Under the pieces are notes generated by a model, which saw only the letters and a list, made by a program, of their open reading frames with translations, made no database searches and was not told the DNA's origin. From a virus (taxonomy: Duplodnaviria > Heunggongvirae > Uroviricota > Caudoviricetes): DNA of 19,015 bases. Below are positions 7,931-13,350 of the stretch, piece by piece (position 1 is the first letter of the stretch; each line of letters opens with the position of its first letter). The translations under genes were made by a program, and so were the position numbers. Location of the stretch: IMG/VR virus record IMGVR_UViG_2703718841_000004; one strand, 5' to 3'.

Positions 7931-8392
7931 TTTCTCTATCTGCCGTTGGTGTTCATGCCCGAGGCAGATAGCCTCAAGCACCCACAGCCATTCTACTTAA
8001 CTACCGTTACCTCGCCAACATGAAATCAATCAGAAAGGCGAACCATAAGAACAATAACAACAATTAAATTCATTTTCTCAAATCCTGTTAACGACGCCCA
8101 TCCGACACTAACAACTTTCATTTATTATACTATTTCCCCATCGACGCTCTGCGTTGGCATAACACAAATCTGTCTGTCCGTTTGGGTAAAGAGCGGATAT
8201 CTGCAGTTTCAAAGAAACTGCGCATGCACACGAACTATCAAAGATAGTGATAACTGAGATAAAAACATATGGAAGCCTTCGGCATTTAAAAATAACAGCA
8301 AATCATATAAAAGGAAAGAGATAAGCAACATTTACATAACATGTATCACGATACGCCCCAGTGTTAATAAAAAGACTATCACTTTATTCTTT

Positions 8393-8398
8393 TATAAT
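8393..8398 (+). promoter_or_regulatory. Candidate -10 hexamer (TATAAT) of a promoter for the OLD-family gene
   Basis: Consensus TATAAT lies about 50 nt upstream of ATG 8449 in an AT-rich 590-bp intergenic region. No convincing -35 was found. Confidence 0.2.
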
Positions 8399-8448
8399 GT
8401 TAGTTTGCACTAGCAAGTGCCACTCCGAACAGAAAAAGGATACATGTA

Positions 8449-10260
8449 ATGAAGCTACAGCAATTTAATATTAAAAATTACAAGTCGATAAAAGATGAAA
8501 TAGAAGTATATATCGATGATATAGTTGTGCTAATTGGTCCAAATAACTCTGGAAAGTCAACAATATTAGATGCGTATGAAAAGTTTGCATCTTTAGGATC
8601 AGCAAAAGGCCTGACTGCTCATGATTTTTATAACTCAGATATATCTATACCAATTGAAATGTGCGGAATTTTCACTGATATCACTGATGATGATATTCGT
8701 ACATTAGGGGGAGAGAAATGGTTTTATAAAGATGATGCTCTTGACAGAAGAAATATGGCAAGAAAGTATGGGGGAGATTGGGAGAAAAATAATACCCCAT
8801 TGGAAAGCAAACTCTATTATTGTGTTAAATGGGTTTGGTCACATCCAGAAAAAGCAGCCCAAAAACAATCCTATGGCCTTGATGATGCCTCTGGCAAACG
8901 CATATTTATTGATGGGGGCTCTGGGGGACTTGACACACTACTACAAAGTCGAGTTCCTCAACCAATAAGAATAAGCCCAGATAAATCCATGGATGAAACT
9001 AAAAAAATTATCATAAGTTTCTTAAAGGAAGATGCAAAAGATGAGTTACTGAAAACAGGGGAAAGTAAAGCTGATATAATACAGAAAATACAAGAGTTGA
9101 CAGACACTCTTATGAAAGATTCCAAATCAAAAATCGATGATCTTCTACAGCAGGTCTCCAAATCATCATCATCTGTTTTTCCTGGGCTAGAACTGGAATT
9201 AAACATACTTTCCAAGGATCCCGTAGATGCGGATGTTATGGTTTCAGAATCTAACCTTACAGTGAAAATGGATGGGATAAATAGCTCTCTTCTCGAGAAC
9301 CAAGGTCACGGTGTTCGCCGCTCCGTTTTATGGTCTGCTTTGCAAATTTTGACTCACGAATCTCATGCACGAGATAAAATAAAAAAAGCGAAAGGTAAGC
9401 CTATCTCTGTTGAGAAAAAACAATATATTTTATTGATTGATGAGCCTGAATCATTTCTTCACCCTCCTATAATTAGAAGTGCGAGGGACTCGCTTTATGA
9501 TTTTGCAGCAAACAATGATAACTGGCAGGTGATGGCTACAACACACTCCCCTGTATTCATAGACTTATCCAAGAAGCACACGACTATAATTAGGATAGAA
9601 AAAGACAAATCGCTAAATAAAACAATATCTACAGATGAACTATCTTTTTCTGAAGAGGAAAAAGATAATATGAAAATGATAAGATTATGCAACCCAATGG
9701 TTAATGAGTTTTTCTTTTACGACAATATAATATTAGTTGAAGGCCCAACTGAAAAAATCGTCATTAACAAAATATGTGATATTGTCGGAGTTGATTATCA
9801 TATCATTGACTGTTTAGGAAAAGGGAATATAAAAACATTTGCTAAAATATTAAATCAATTTAACGTTGAGTATATAGCAGTACATGACTCCGACATTCCA
9901 AAATGCTTAAAGCAAGGAAGCGTTTCAGGTAATGGGGCATGGGGTTCAAATGTATCCATAATGAACGAATGCTCTAAAAGTAAAAAACCAATGGTATTTA
10001 TTCAAATACCTCATTTCGAAGGACTGTTTTTTAAAAATTTCAATCCATCAAACAAAGTTGAGACAGTAACATCAGTTCTATCTAATAATTTAACACCAGA
10101 ATACAAAGCAATATTTGATACATATAGCAGAATTTTAAACAAAGATCCATCTGTTTTTATCAGCTCCAACGAAAAAATGATAGACATGTATCATGCATTT
10201 TATGCCAGTAATAAAAACCAAATTGAGACGCTAAAGAATCCTGAAATCTGGATCCTTTAA
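8449..10260 (+). CDS. OLD-family nuclease-type protein: N-terminal ABC/SMC-like ATPase with coiled-coil insert plus C-terminal Toprim domain (class 1 OLD-like or fused PARIS-like); candidate anti-phage defence gene
   Basis: 603 aa. Walker A GPNNSGKST (aa 30-38, nt 8536-8562), coiled-coil insert about aa 180-240, Walker B ILLIDEPE (aa 327-334, nt 9427-9450), H-loop ATTHSP (aa 363-368), Toprim glutamate in ILVEGPTE (E431, nt 9739-9741), conserved Gly in CLGKG, and DxD in VHDSDIP (aa 480-482, nt 9886-9894). RBS AAGGA 8 nt upstream and a clean terminator downstream. It is plus-strand in a minus-strand neighbourhood and visibly AT-rich. Confidence 0.75.
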   Translation: MKLQQFNIKNYKSIKDEIEVYIDDIVVLIGPNNSGKSTILDAYEKFASLGSAKGLTAHDFYNSDISIPIEMCGIFTDITDDDIRTLGGEKWFYKDDALDRRNMARKYGGDWEKNNTPLESKLYYCVKWVWSHPEKAAQKQSYGLDDASGKRIFIDGGSGGLDTLLQSRVPQPIRISPDKSMDETKKIIISFLKEDAKDELLKTGESKADIIQKIQELTDTLMKDSKSKIDDLLQQVSKSSSSVFPGLELELNILSKDPVDADVMVSESNLTVKMDGINSSLLENQGHGVRRSVLWSALQILTHESHARDKIKKAKGKPISVEKKQYILLIDEPESFLHPPIIRSARDSLYDFAANNDNWQVMATTHSPVFIDLSKKHTTIIRIEKDKSLNKTISTDELSFSEEEKDNMKMIRLCNPMVNEFFFYDNIILVEGPTEKIVINKICDIVGVDYHIIDCLGKGNIKTFAKILNQFNVEYIAVHDSDIPKCLKQGSVSGNGAWGSNVSIMNECSKSKKPMVFIQIPHFEGLFFKNFNPSNKVETVTSVLSNNLTPEYKAIFDTYSRILNKDPSVFISSNEKMIDMYHAFYASNKNQIETLKNPEIWIL

Positions 10261-10290
10261 TTTTTAATGTTGTAATAAATATTATTTAGT

Positions 10291-10317
10291 AACAACCCTC
10301 TATTGAGGGTTGTTTTT
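10291..10317 (+). terminator. Intrinsic terminator of the OLD-family gene
   Basis: Perfect 10-bp stem AACAACCCTC/GAGGGTTGTT (10291-10300 / 10305-10314) with loop TATT, followed by TTTTAAT; it lies 31 nt after the stop codon. Confidence 0.7.
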
Positions 10318-10580
10318 AATCATAAGAAATCTGACACACTCTATCATACTAAAAATAACACAACATGCATACAAAGTGTTTATATGCATAGACATATTAC
10401 CTCACATCTGAGTCAATACACTTTAATTTCATTTACCGAACCAATTTCTTATTACTGGTATGATAAAAGTTCAACACACGCCGCATAACTTCGCTCTTCC
10501 GGCACTCGCGACGGATTATGTTTAGACGCCTGTCATAGTGACGTATTTCTCCGTCTGGTAATGACCAGATAAGGTCCGGA

Positions 10581-10856
10581 TCAACCACAGATGGTTTCTT
10601 CAGCTTTGCCCTCGAGAGTTTTTTTGCGGGCGTTTTGCCAGTCCTTACGAGCCTGTTCAGACGGGAATAACCCGTAGCCAGAGTTGTATACATCACCGCT
10701 CGCAACCAGCTCTCTGGCAAGAACGCTCATCAGATATCTTGTCGCACCTGTTTTAGCTTCCAGTTGCCGTAGCGTCTCTCGCCCACTCTGGCGTACTAGC
10801 TTAACAACCTGCCCTTTAATTTTTTCCCGCTCTTCTTGTGTAAAAACTTTTGCCAC
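10581..10856 (-). CDS. Hypothetical protein downstream of the replication gene (GTG start); possibly the N-terminal part of a frameshifted gene
   Basis: 91 aa (MAKVFTQEEREKIKGQVVKLVRQSGRETLRQLEAKTGATRYL...) with GTG start at 10856 and a strong RBS AGGAGG 4-5 nt upstream. It overlaps a second ORF (10433..10720) in another frame at an A7/T7 homopolymer. Confidence 0.45.
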   Translation of the reverse strand: MAKVFTQEEREKIKGQVVKLVRQSGRETLRQLEAKTGATRYLMSVLARELVASGDVYNSGYGLFPSEQARKDWQNARKKTLEGKAEETICG

Positions 10857-10896
10857 AAGCCCTCCTGAAAATTACCTCATGACCAGAAATTAACAC

Positions 10897-11979
10897 TTAC
10901 CCCCTGAAGCCCGGCGGAATTTCGTTATCCGGTTCAGAAATATGATTCACACAACGCTGGTTGTTCGTGCCGCTTACCGGGAGCAACCAAGGGTTCTCAA
11001 AATTCCGGTCCGGTCCCAAAAACGTCGTCGCTCGCTGAACAAATTCCGTTCCCGTTTTCCCGGTAGCCGCCAGGTATCTTGCGTAACGCCTCACACCATC
11101 CAGCATGGCCTCTGGTGGCACCCCCTCGCGTAATCTGGCTTTCCAGGCACTGAAAGCGGATTTCTTCGGGTTTGCCCCGGCACGCAACGGGTATTCCCGC
11201 CAGACCTGTTCGAACACATCAGGATAATCCACTCGTCCCACAGGCTGCCCGGTGTTTTCCGGGACTACCCGATCGGCTTCCCGCTGAATGGCGGAATCGG
11301 CTTCAGGCTGCTGAAGTTGGTGTGATTGCTCCTGCCTTGCGGTCATCACCTGCTGCACAGCGCCCGAATCGGCTTTCAGCGCATACGCTGAATCGGCTTC
11401 CGGTGTCGTGCCTGCTGGCTGACCAAGATTGACGGTCTGAACATCCCCTGCCTGGTTCGTGGCGTTTTTTACGCCATGGACCATAGTGTTTTGATCTTCT
11501 TGATCTGTATCTTTATCTGTATCTTTATCTGTATCTTTATCTGTCGTGACTCGTCGTGACATGTGCGTGACATTTCGTGACTCGCCGTGACAATCGCCAT
11601 TTTGTTCCCGCTTTCTTTCCCTCTCTCGCTGCGCCCTCTTGCGCTCTGCCGGAGATTTTGCGGTTTGCGAAATATTGCCGTTGTCCTCTTTCAGCACCTG
11701 GCGTTTTTCCCATCCAGTGATTAAATCACCATCAAGTACCCGCCCCTGCATCGTCTGCAAAATTGAATCAATTACCTCTTCTGTCACGTCGAGCGCACTT
11801 GCCAAATCTTCTGTCGTGACATCAATGTGACCTCGCGTGACATTTCGTGACGCGCTCACCAGGAGGTGGATATACACTGCCATCACTGTTGCAATTGGCT
11901 GCCCTGACACCCTGGCAATTGTTCGCCACTTAGGGTCATTTGGCATGTCATGCCATAATCTGAGCCAGGCGTTAGCCAT
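10897..11979 (-). CDS. Putative phage replication initiation protein (O-like) containing the origin iterons within its coding sequence
   Basis: About 360 aa from ATG 11979 (MANAWLRLWHDMPNDPKW...), RBS AGAGG. It lies downstream of the Cro-like and CII-like genes, where lambdoid phages place O. Iteron arrays and an AT-rich tandem repeat sit inside the ORF. The family assignment is not confirmed. Confidence 0.6.
   Translation of the reverse strand: MANAWLRLWHDMPNDPKWRTIARVSGQPIATVMAVYIHLLVSASRNVTRGHIDVTTEDLASALDVTEEVIDSILQTMQGRVLDGDLITGWEKRQVLKEDNGNISQTAKSPAERKRAQRERERKREQNGDCHGESRNVTHMSRRVTTDKDTDKDTDKDTDQEDQNTMVHGVKNATNQAGDVQTVNLGQPAGTTPEADSAYALKADSGAVQQVMTARQEQSHQLQQPEADSAIQREADRVVPENTGQPVGRVDYPDVFEQVWREYPLRAGANPKKSAFSAWKARLREGVPPEAMLDGVRRYARYLAATGKTGTEFVQRATTFLGPDRNFENPWLLPVSGTNNQRCVNHISEPDNEIPPGFRG
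11503..11544. repeat. AT-rich 12-bp tandem repeat (ATCTGTATCTTT x 3.5); candidate DNA-unwinding element of the origin, encoding a (TDKD)n segment
   Basis: Exact tandem copies at 11503-11514, 11515-11526 and 11527-11538, plus a partial copy at 11539-11544. Translated on the minus strand this gives TDKDTDKDTDKDTD. Confidence 0.6.
11545..11591. repeat. Iteron array 1: five direct CGTGAC hexamers at about 10-11 bp phasing (candidate initiator binding sites of ori)
   Basis: CGTGAC at 11545, 11555, 11566, 11576 and 11586, with spacings 10, 11, 10 and 10 bp, directly adjacent to the AT-rich tandem repeat. Confidence 0.55.
11815..11851. repeat. Iteron array 2: four direct (C/T)GTGAC hexamers at 10-11 bp phasing; shares an exact 17-bp repeat with array 1
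   Basis: Hexamers at 11815, 11826, 11836 and 11846. GCGTGACATTTCGTGAC is identical at 11565-11581 and 11835-11851. An inverted copy GTCACG lies at 11784-11789. Confidence 0.5.
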
Positions 11980-12050
11980 ACTCACCTCTTCTGATACCGA
12001 ATCTTTTTACTCACGAGTTGCCGGAAGCGATTCGATATGACTATTGTCAG

Positions 12051-12476
12051 TCAATGTACTGCCACAGCATTTCCTTCCGGGCCACCACGGTTCATCTGAT
12101 TGAAACCGGCGATTGCCACTGCGACAAAATCATCAGCGTCTCTCACCAGTCGCTCCCGCGTCTCCACCAGCTCCCGAAAATAAGCTGAACTGTGGCTGCG
12201 CATTCTGGCCACCAGCAAAGGTGGCATTGCCTTTTCGATCGCTGGTAACAACGCCTGAATTTTTTCAACTGCATCAGGGGTGTCTTTCTCTATCCAGCGG
12301 AAAATTTTCTGGGTATTGCGAGCCAGGGCTTCCGGATGGCTGTCGTCGTACAGTTCAGGAAACGTCATACCCAACTCAAAATAAGCCTGGGTTATTCCAG
12401 CTGCCGGAACTTTTTCGCCATCAGGACGCGCCCAGGCATTCATCGCCATGCGGATGTGTTCATGCTTGATTTTCAT
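12051..12476 (-). CDS. YdaT-like protein (CII-like regulator domain)
   Basis: 141 aa starting MKIKHEHI..., as recalled for Rac YdaT. Its ATG overlaps the upstream gene's stop (ATGA), and it follows the Cro-like gene. Confidence 0.7.
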   Translation of the reverse strand: MKIKHEHIRMAMNAWARPDGEKVPAAGITQAYFELGMTFPELYDDSHPEALARNTQKIFRWIEKDTPDAVEKIQALLPAIEKAMPPLLVARMRSHSSAYFRELVETRERLVRDADDFVAVAIAGFNQMNRGGPEGNAVAVH

Positions 12477-12727
12477 GAATCAACTCCCATCAGCTTTTTC
12501 GTAGTAGTTTTATTCCTGCCAATAGTTAAAATTGCATCGGCAGAAAATAATCCGTTTGATGCAAGAGCGATTTTTTCAGCGTAATTTGTTTCGCCGGTAT
12601 ATTCTGTGCGAGGCAATTTTCCGTTATCCATCCATTTATAGATTGCTCTTTGGCTGACACCACAAACGTCGGCCACAACAGCAACGCGAACAGTTTTGAT
12701 TACATCTTCAAGTGTTTTCTGGTTCAT
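12473..12727 (-). CDS. Cro-like HTH regulator (YdaS-type)
   Basis: 84 aa from ATG 12727 (MNQKTLEDVIKTVRVAVVADVCGVSQRAIYKWMDNGKLP...), RBS GAGGGTG. It is divergent from the repressor gene. Confidence 0.65.
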   Translation of the reverse strand: MNQKTLEDVIKTVRVAVVADVCGVSQRAIYKWMDNGKLPRTEYTGETNYAEKIALASNGLFSADAILTIGRNKTTTKKLMGVDS

Positions 12728-12806
12728 ATCACCCTCACAATGTGAACTTTGAGTACATGCTATAACAGAACTGACAGTACATTCAAGAGCGAATATCATT
12801 GAACTT
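12728..12806. promoter_or_regulatory. Divergent operator/promoter region between the Cro-like gene and the repressor (OR-like)
   Basis: 79-bp intergenic region with two direct AGTACAT motifs (12752-12758, 12776-12782) and the palindrome TCACA-A-TGTGA (12735-12745) over the Cro-like gene RBS region. The repressor ATG has no obvious RBS. Confidence 0.45.
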
Positions 12807-13226
12807 ATGGTTCATGAAGATAAAGCGCGTAAAGAGTTCGCCAGTAGGCTTGCGCTAGCCTGTGAAAACGCTGGTTATGAACAACATGGAAGGCAGGCAG
12901 AAATTGCCCGTCGAATGAAATTAACACCAAAAGCGGTTAGCAAATGGTTTAATGGCGAAACAATTCCTCGCCGGGAGAAATTAAGGGAATTAGCAACACT
13001 AATAGGAACAACACCAACCTATCTTTTGGGAGAGGATACAGAAGAAAGTGGACAGGTACGTTTCTATCAGGAGTTAAATCCAAGACAAAAAATCATCATT
13101 GACCTTCTGGACGAGCTCCCTGACAGTGAGACAGATGAACTTTTAAAAACTCTTGAAGAGAAAAAACAGAAGTACAATGCAATTTACGAAGAGTTAGCAC
13201 GAAAGAAAAAACAAAAAGCCTCTTAA
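12807..13226 (+). CDS. Prophage repressor, XRE-family HTH (DicA/RacR/CI-like)
   Basis: 139 aa; N-terminal HTH (...FASRLALACENAGYEQHGRQAEIARRMKLTPKAVSKWFNGETIP...) and an acidic/helical C-terminus. It is divergent from the Cro-like gene. Confidence 0.8.
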   Translation: MVHEDKARKEFASRLALACENAGYEQHGRQAEIARRMKLTPKAVSKWFNGETIPRREKLRELATLIGTTPTYLLGEDTEESGQVRFYQELNPRQKIIIDLLDELPDSETDELLKTLEEKKQKYNAIYEELARKKKQKAS

Positions 13227-13299
13227 ACCAGCATAAATCCGGTAGCGCCTTCCTCCGGGTTTGTGCTTCACTTTATCCCATCTCATTTTTTTACACACA

Positions 13300-13350
13300 A
13301 AATGTACTAAAAGTACTTTACAACAATGAACGCAAAGTACATTATATACC
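13300..13350 (+). promoter_or_regulatory. OL/PL-like operator-promoter region for the early-left operon
   Basis: ATGTACT (13302-13308), the 10-bp palindrome AAAGTACTTT (13310-13319) and AGTACAT (13336-13342) share the motif found in the divergent region. A candidate -35 TTACAA (13318-13323) and -10 ATTATA (13341-13346) overlap them. Confidence 0.4.

Follow-up and report, generated by a model that had tools for sequence, protein, structure and literature searches.

A 19,015-nucleotide stretch of viral DNA (IMG/VR record IMGVR_UViG_2703718841_000004, hereafter the window) carries on its minus strand the gene for a 360-residue replication initiator. Within the coding sequence of this gene lie two arrays of short, phased direct repeats (iterons) and an AT-rich tandem repeat. 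These repeats most probably form the origin of a lambdoid (Qin-like) prophage, with iterons and an unwinding element placed inside the initiator gene and read by its own product. The origin-in-initiator layout is known from lambda and SPP1, and it seems not to have been described yet for this widespread family. No description of this origin was found in the searchable literature, although much older phage literature lies outside it and a prior description is possible. The region had been pointed out as a lambda-like origin in an earlier note, which was drawn up from the letters of the window alone.

Two phased repeat arrays in the initiator gene

The earlier note had listed five direct CGTGAC repeats at 10–11-bp spacing between 11545 and 11591, and all five were located. 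On the plus strand CGTGAC begins at 11545, 11555, 11566, 11576 and 11586, and the GTGAC within it at 11546, 11556, 11567, 11577 and 11587, giving spacings of 10, 11, 10 and 10 bp. A second array of four had been placed about 265 bp away. Its four copies are present, with GTGAC at 11816, 11827, 11837 and 11847 (spacings 11, 10 and 10 bp), but the full CGTGAC occurs in only three of them. Thus eight of the nine array copies read CGTGAC and the ninth, at 11826, reads TGTGAC. The distance between the arrays also needed correction, as it is 260 bp in register and 270 bp from first copy to first copy. An exact 17-mer, GCGTGACATTTCGTGAC, is common to both arrays (11565-11581 and 11835-11851), and the peptides that the note had read from the repeats, SRNVT twice and TDKDTDKDTDKDTD, are found in the translation. 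A single inverted GTCACG at 11783, missing from the note, occupies the same position in the gene in most homologues whose arrays are built of GTCAC. Along the gene, array 2 (nucleotides 129-165) comes first and is followed by the inverted copy (nucleotide 193), a 229-bp spacer, array 1 (nucleotides 389-435) and the AT-rich repeat.

Chance expectation was estimated from 200 first-order Markov simulations of the 19-kb window. The longest run of any 5-mer phased at 10 or 11 bp was 2 in 190 simulations and 3 in the remaining 10, compared with observed runs of 5 and 4. Half of the GTGAC occurrences in the whole window (9/18) fall within the two arrays. The related phage Tritos, whose complete genome of 46,360 bp extends from terminase to lysis genes, has the same two arrays as its only clusters of at least three GTCAC/GTGAC. 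Clearly, the arrays are real and non-random, far beyond chance.

An AT-rich 12-bp tandem repeat abuts array 1, as had been noted. Its copy number is 3.9 rather than the 3.5 given before; Tandem Repeats Finder reports it at 11498-11544 with a period of 12 and 97% matches. The GC content of the tract is 30–34%, against about 55–60% elsewhere in the gene, and its coding strand is 71% A+T and 75% purine. With a nearest-neighbour free energy of −55.3 kcal/mol (mean of the gene, −73.2 ± 4.6), the tract is the least stable 50 bp both of the gene and of the 10897-12799 operon. Weaker DNA is found only in the low-GC island around an OLD-type nuclease gene. The number of 12-bp copies varies from 1 to 5 among 80 close relatives. 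From its place beside the iterons and its low stability, this tract is presumed to act as the unwinding element.

Conservation of the arrays across the family

The family was surveyed in a species scan with one genome per species, which yielded 59 loci from gamma-, beta- and alphaproteobacteria and Acidobacteria with 53 scorable genes. The dominant core of each array was scored by per-core count; an unbiased 6-mer screen of the linker zone was confounded by AGATAA repeats. A linker array of at least three copies, corresponding to array 1, is present in 42/53 homologous genes from different species. In the GTCAC class the spacing is 10 or 11 bp in 125/136 intervals, with fixed cores and variable spacers. 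Homologues whose N-terminal domain is at least about 58% identical to that of the window keep GTCAC at both places, and more distant homologues have GTAACG or CGAACGC at the same two places. Among genes with a dominant core in each array, the two arrays share that core in 43/43 (23 GTCAC, 6 GTAAC and 14 RAACG). Of the rest of the 53 genes, 7 have the linker array alone and 3 have no array. The three cores have the 3' half ACG in common and differ in the 5' half, which is GTC, GTA or CGA, a pattern that looks like stepwise drift in specificity. Because array 2 is absent from seven homologues that retain the linker array, it is probably accessory.

The arrays are 230 bp apart, and their core is the same in both but differs between lineages. 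Linkage alone is insufficient to account for this, and a common lineage-specific binder would explain it. The obvious candidate is the initiator encoded in cis. In Serratia and Pantoea, one homologue each (L132 and L141) has a conserved N-terminal domain and no iteron arrays. Instead, about nucleotides 330-520 of these genes are taken up by an insertion that contains ACTACG/TAGTA repeats together with a peptide similar to a small nuclease-like domain (…YVYYVATTDGDVVRVGISR…).

Many unrelated C-terminal domains occur joined to this N-terminal domain. In Pseudomonas phage 5399 and Aeromonas phage pAEv1818 the N-terminal domain is 70% identical to that of the window protein and is combined with different C-terminal domains and different partner genes, the next gene being a primase-helicase in phage 5399 and a DnaC-like loader in pAEv1818. 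Both nevertheless hold two GTCACG arrays 259–260 bp apart, followed by AGATAAAGATA. Conversely, PhiR5_2 and the 75/02 Stx phage carry the window protein's C-terminal domain (62% identity) behind a different N-terminal domain, and the GTCACG arrays are absent. In these comparisons the arrays track the N-terminal domain and not the C-terminal domain. The AT-rich tract is a recombination boundary, as homology to PhiR5_2 begins directly after it and the C-terminal domains differ beyond it.

A similar tract follows the linker array in other species, whichever of the three cores the array is built of. In the 42 linker-array loci, the 50 nucleotides past the last iteron are 66% A+T (gene mean 45%) and 73% purine on the coding strand (gene mean 57%). 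AGATAA, or the related AGAGAA or AGAGGA, starts 2–5 nucleotides from the last iteron in 31/42 loci. In many homologues (L086-L144, for example L087, L091, L092, L098, L101 and L128) the purine tract closes with a proline-encoding C run just past the AT-rich part, as in AAACCCCAC, ATACCCCCCT and GATCCCCCCT. The window has no C run and instead has two GATC sites there (GATCAAGAAGATC).

The reading frame of the cores changes from copy to copy. The frames are 2, 0, 1 and 0 in array 2 and 1, 2, 0, 2 and 0 in array 1, so that all three are used and the cores are translated as SR, VT, GH or CH. The earlier note had allowed that the repeats could turn out to be a conserved coding repeat with no phasing across homologues; the three frames and the 10/11-bp intervals found in other species show the opposite. 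Synonymous variation was examined over nucleotides 1-231 in 19 homologues from different species that share the same register (71% mean nucleotide identity). The entropy of third codon positions was 0.148 bits in the cores versus 1.319 bits at 66 other third positions (Mann-Whitney p = 3e-4). The inverted copy, with 0.88 bits, is less constrained than the array cores. Where homologues differ in array length, the difference is 7 codons, equal to 21 bp or two iterons, as in the insertion KCHGVSL of an O157-type relative and HMSRRVT of the window. Iteron positions are invariant across 80 near-identical relatives. Judged from these comparisons, the repeats are selected as DNA and not as protein. 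For annotation this means that the conserved peptide CH.ESRNVT.DKDKD mirrors constraint on the DNA rather than on the protein.

The gene also contains a repeat of another kind. Four copies of AAGCCGAT(T/C) lie at 11272-11399 on the minus strand (nucleotides 581-708 of the gene), spaced 24, 72 and 24 bp apart and in one frame throughout. They encode the repeat peptide E/K-A-D-S/R, which also occurs in PhiR5_2 and 75/02 Stx, the phages that share the C-terminal domain. Unlike the iterons, this may be simply a protein repeat.

The initiator protein and comparison with known origins

The earlier assignment of the open reading frame (ORF) to a replication initiator is borne out by PHROG 3729, 'replication initiation protein', which matches the 360-residue protein over its full length (E = 5e-255). 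The remaining PHROG families cover just the N-terminal or just the C-terminal half, and Pfam gave no family at E ≤ 0.01. Genes 96–98% identical to it in phages and E. coli genomes bear the names 'DNA replication protein O', 'primosomal protein I' and 'phage replisome organizer'. Seven sequenced Escherichia phages carry the replication gene at this identity, and 328 of 5426 complete E. coli genomes contain at least 80% of the 2.9-kb replication/immunity region. The initiator gene is the sole replication gene of the complete Tritos genome, and there is no helicase-loader gene in the module. The initiator is thus the only replication gene of the module.

Structure was predicted with AlphaFold2 from a 67-sequence alignment. 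Residues 1-98 are modelled confidently, with a predicted local distance difference test (pLDDT) score mostly above 90, and contain a helix-turn-helix (56-77) and a beta wing (78-88). The predicted winged helix resembles the DnaD N-terminal domain and a plasmid initiator, and a profile of the domain gave chance matches only against PDB sequences. Array 2 encodes the loop at residues 43-56, directly ahead of the helix-turn-helix. The linker, whose coding sequence includes array 1 and the AT repeat, is of low confidence (pLDDT below 50 at residues 137-140 and 151-203; mean about 51 at residues 131-150). The C-terminal domain is helical with moderate confidence and matches PHROG 1701, 'DnaD-like helicase loader' (E = 5e-61), and PHROG 18526.

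The last ~23 residues (338-360, encoded at 10900-10968; ...VNHISEPDNEIPPGFRG) match the C-terminal tail of host DnaT almost residue for residue. In a phmmer search of the PDB this tail aligned with the last 22–25 residues of the DnaT chains 6aep, 2ru8 and 9zbt_D (E = 5e-4 to 0.01). Furthermore, positions 156-179 of the NCBIfam DnaT model match the last 24 residues of the initiator, and the conserved DnaT tail …SEPD..IPPGFRG is present. The DnaT single-stranded DNA-binding domain PF17948 was not found in the window protein with Pfam; it is present in relatives with the same N-terminal domain, such as pAEv1818 (E = 1.6e-16). Together with the lack of a loader gene, the DnaT-like tail suggests that the initiator employs the host DnaB-DnaC system directly. 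The tail may mimic a DnaT interaction peptide and serve to recruit host replication proteins. Recruitment of DnaB/DnaC by DnaT is itself suspected but not proven (PMC13377028).

We infer the binding, unwinding and helicase-recruitment steps as follows. Early rightward-type transcription from the cro-side promoter would yield the initiator. Its N-terminal winged-helix domain would bind the GTCACG cores as monomers, nearly on one face of the helix, at five sites in array 1, four in array 2 and the one inverted copy. The resulting nucleoprotein complex would strain and open the adjoining AT-rich, purine-skewed tract. The C-terminal domain with its DnaT-like tail would then bring host DnaB-DnaC, and a phage-encoded loader would not be involved. 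The probable role of the upstream array, which would be dispensable in some lineages, is to steady the complex through looping or to take part in copy control.

By analogy, such an origin would correspond to lambda ori/O and SPP1 oriL/G38P. In anatomy, SPP1 comes nearest. G38P binds its oriL, and a 356-bp fragment is enough for theta replication in vitro (PMC6316719, PMC5737612). There too, the initiator gene contains the origin, which sits in the linker that joins a DNA-binding N-terminal domain to a DnaD-like C-terminal one. In the linker of SPP1 gene 38, short direct repeats recur about every 11 bp and are directly succeeded by an AT-rich 9-bp tandem repeat that serves as unwinding element, a layout like that of the window. 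The window protein is also named 'phage replisome organizer' by PGAP and in several phage annotations. The two systems differ in that SPP1 encodes the G39P loader and the G40P helicase, neither of which is encoded by the window module. In SPP1 the second G38P binding region, oriR, is 13 kb away, whereas the second array of the window is 260 bp upstream in the same gene. The iteron sequences are unrelated.

Lambda ori within O is the closest precedent in genomic setting, and the lambda arrangement proposed in the earlier note stands as far as layout is concerned. In both, the initiator gene belongs to a lambdoid early operon and lies downstream of both cro and a cII-like gene. The iterons are in mid-gene, and transcription runs from them into an AT-rich tract whose purines are strongly biased to one strand. 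In lambda, a 40-bp AT-rich region beside the iterons consists of nearly all purines on one strand (PMC5043065). In both systems the N-terminal domain and the origin form one exchangeable specificity module. The likeness does not extend to homology to lambda O or to the iterons, for which SPP1 oriL is closer. In lambda, O dimers bind four near-palindromic iterons of 19 bp (PMC5043065); the window has direct, asymmetric cores of 6–7 bp at 10–11-bp spacing (about 10.3), suggesting that they are bound by monomers. The window module further differs from lambda in having no P-type loader gene and in having a second array in the region coding for the DNA-binding domain.

Iteron plasmids have helix-phased direct repeats that are bound by winged-helix initiator monomers beside an AT-rich unwinding element (PMC5043065). 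The window shares phased direct repeats beside an AT-rich element with plasmid origins of the RK2, F, P1, R6K and pPS10 class. Plasmid iterons are, however, usually 17–22 bp long and outside the rep gene, whereas those of the window are inside the initiator gene. DnaA boxes are usual in the plasmids and absent in the window, and there is no sequence homology. The likeness to E. coli DnaT is confined to the near-identical tail (…SEPDNEIPPGFRG), and DnaT differs in being recruited to forks by PriA/PriB and not to a sequence-specific origin. Rac oriJ was considered as a relative and set aside, as the literature confirms only an active oriJ in Rac and no link to this initiator family. On sequence grounds, the window initiator is best placed in a family of its own and not in the lambda O or SPP1 G38P families.

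Competing explanations and genomic setting

Several observations weigh against an origin of this kind. The arrays overlap or abut the sequence coding for the N-terminal domain, and their co-inheritance with it is partly trivial linkage; for this reason the argument rests on the concerted identity of the two arrays and on the constraint at synonymous sites. Some of the tract's richness in purines and A+T is to be expected from the D/K/E-rich codons of the linker. A single frame is used for AGATAA in 29 loci, and just 3 loci use another. Frame-independent conservation of the AGATAA tract is therefore weak and was not relied on; what speaks for the tract is where it lies, what it is composed of and how unstable it is. 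A match of the 12-bp repeat to the oriC 13-mer was also rejected, since the single two-mismatch match, at 11502, is one of 18 in the window, which is the chance level. There are no DnaA boxes in the replication region, and the three one-mismatch matches in the window are below chance expectation. No lambda O model (Phage_rep_O) matched the initiator even at E ≤ 10. An hhalign comparison of a 24-sequence N-domain alignment with SPP1 G38P gave a probability of 0.1, that is, no relation. PF09681 (Phage_rep_org_N; 12.8 bits against a cut-off of 23.3, E = 0.12) and TIGR01714 (15.4 bits against 49.8) remained below threshold. These sub-threshold matches span the whole domain (residues 5-122), and PHROG 'replisome organizer' families match residues 4-168 (E = 1.9e-7 and 9.4e-6), so that a remote link to G38P, if there is one, would run via intermediate phage families. 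A literature search found no paper on binding, unwinding or replication in this initiator family. Finally, a frameshift in the neighbouring DUF977 gene may mean that this prophage is not fully intact.

The arrays could instead be initiator sites for autoregulation or copy control, acting by handcuffing or as an intragenic transcriptional roadblock, with the true origin elsewhere in the prophage. We consider this unlikely. Plasmid replicons and SPP1 do have second iteron clusters that do not fire, G38P binding oriR as well, and the absence of the upstream array in 7 lineages shows at least that array to be accessory. However, the complete Tritos genome has no other GTCAC cluster, and the layout agrees with that of the proven SPP1 oriL. 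The linker array, moreover, is always joined to the least stable, AT-rich tract, which is the signature of an origin and not of an operator. There is little chance that the arrays are bound by some other protein, such as a host factor, a cII/YdaT-like protein or a repressor, for transcription control or recombination. Nothing speaks for it directly, although the neighbouring YdaT-like and Cro-like genes do encode DNA-binding proteins. The arrays stay with the N-terminal domain in prophages of Pseudomonas, Aeromonas, Bordetella, Acidovorax and others in which neighbours and hosts differ, and the core switches along with the N-domain lineage.

It is hardly credible that the repeats are a by-product of a low-complexity protein linker, of slippage or of gene conversion, with no function as DNA. 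The 12-bp repeat does range from 1 to 5 copies among close relatives, like a slippage-prone microsatellite, and encodes a simple TDKD repeat in a disordered linker; the single-frame AAGCCGAT repeat (four copies, 11272-11399) is perhaps a protein repeat as well. Against this, the GTCACG cores stand in all three frames and encode CH, SR, VT and GH, synonymous positions are frozen within them, and one of the arrays lies within a well-folded domain. The agreement of the core between the two arrays in 43/43 genes, with drifting spacers, points the same way. This explanation is already largely refuted.

An iteron origin read by the encoded initiator would provide a concrete, testable origin for a replication module present in hundreds of E. 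coli and Shigella genomes, with related forms in gamma-, beta- and alphaproteobacterial and Acidobacteria prophages. The three iteron specificities (GTCACG, GTAACG and CGAACGC), together with the diverging winged helices, offer a natural series for studying initiator-origin co-evolution and for orthogonal replicons. The loader-less module with its DnaT-like tail points to a mode of host-helicase recruitment unlike that of lambda P. A bolder idea, which we regard as a long shot, is that array 2 is bound by the initiator and at the same time encodes a part of the protein that reads it, the loop at residues 43-56 aiding iteron recognition. The loop peptide does vary with iteron class, being ASRNVTRGH with GTCACG and ASNATERGRTQ with CGAACGC. 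Should the loop take part in recognition, site and reader would occupy one stretch of DNA and a change of origin specificity would be a coupled event. Such coupling would account for the rise of three specificities with function kept throughout.

The surroundings of the initiator gene are those of a typical lambdoid early region (Table 1). In K-12 MG1655, Qin has the dicB/dicF, ydfU and hokD segments in common with the window. It shows no blastn similarity to 10300-13300 and has no initiator annotated after dicC, consistent with the contrast to K-12 Qin that the earlier note had drawn.

Table 1. Coordinates of the putative origin, the initiator gene and neighbouring features of the window
Feature	Position	Strand	Description
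Array 1, core iteron array	11545..11591	minus	five GTCACG at gene nucleotides 389, 399, 409, 420 and 430; interdomain linker
Array 2	11815..11851	minus	four GTCAC(G) at gene nucleotides 129, 139, 149 and 160; part coding for the N-terminal domain (loop at residues 43-56)
Single inverted iteron copy	11783..11788	plus	GTCACG on the plus strand (GTGAC in gene orientation, gene nucleotide 193)
AT-rich tract, presumed DNA-unwinding element	11490..11544	minus	12-bp unit x3.9, then GATCAAGAAGATCAAA with two GATC sites
Replication initiator gene	10897..11979	minus	360 residues; ATG at 11979, stop codon 10897-10899
N-terminal winged-helix domain, presumed origin-binding	11686..11979	minus	coding for residues 1-98
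C-terminal helical domain, presumed helicase-recruitment module	10900..11370	minus	coding for residues 204-360
cI-like repressor gene	12807-13226	plus	
Cro-like gene and YdaT-like gene		minus	upstream of the initiator gene
RusA, Q, holin and endolysin			further downstream of the initiator gene
dicB/dicF-type region, RecE-like exonuclease and integrase			other side of the region

The cI-like and Cro-like genes diverge, and their longest ORFs begin just 7 bp apart (12799-12807), and Tritos is annotated alike. The true starts, operators and promoters must therefore fall within the called ORFs. Downstream of the initiator gene, the DUF977 (YdaW-like) gene at 10433-10856 on the minus strand appears as two overlapping ORFs instead of one. 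The cause is one extra A in the A7 run at 10619-10625, compared with the intact 140-residue gene of Tritos; a frameshift pseudogene, a sequencing error and a slippery site are all conceivable. An AT-rich, low-GC island (about 8000-10400), with the replication gene on one side and the nin/Q region on the other, contains a gene at 8449-10260 on the plus strand, opposite in orientation to the replication gene. It encodes a 603-residue OLD-family protein with an AAA_15 ATPase and an OLD-like TOPRIM nuclease. Tritos has a different gene at this position, and the OLD-family gene looks like anti-phage defence cargo in a variable slot.

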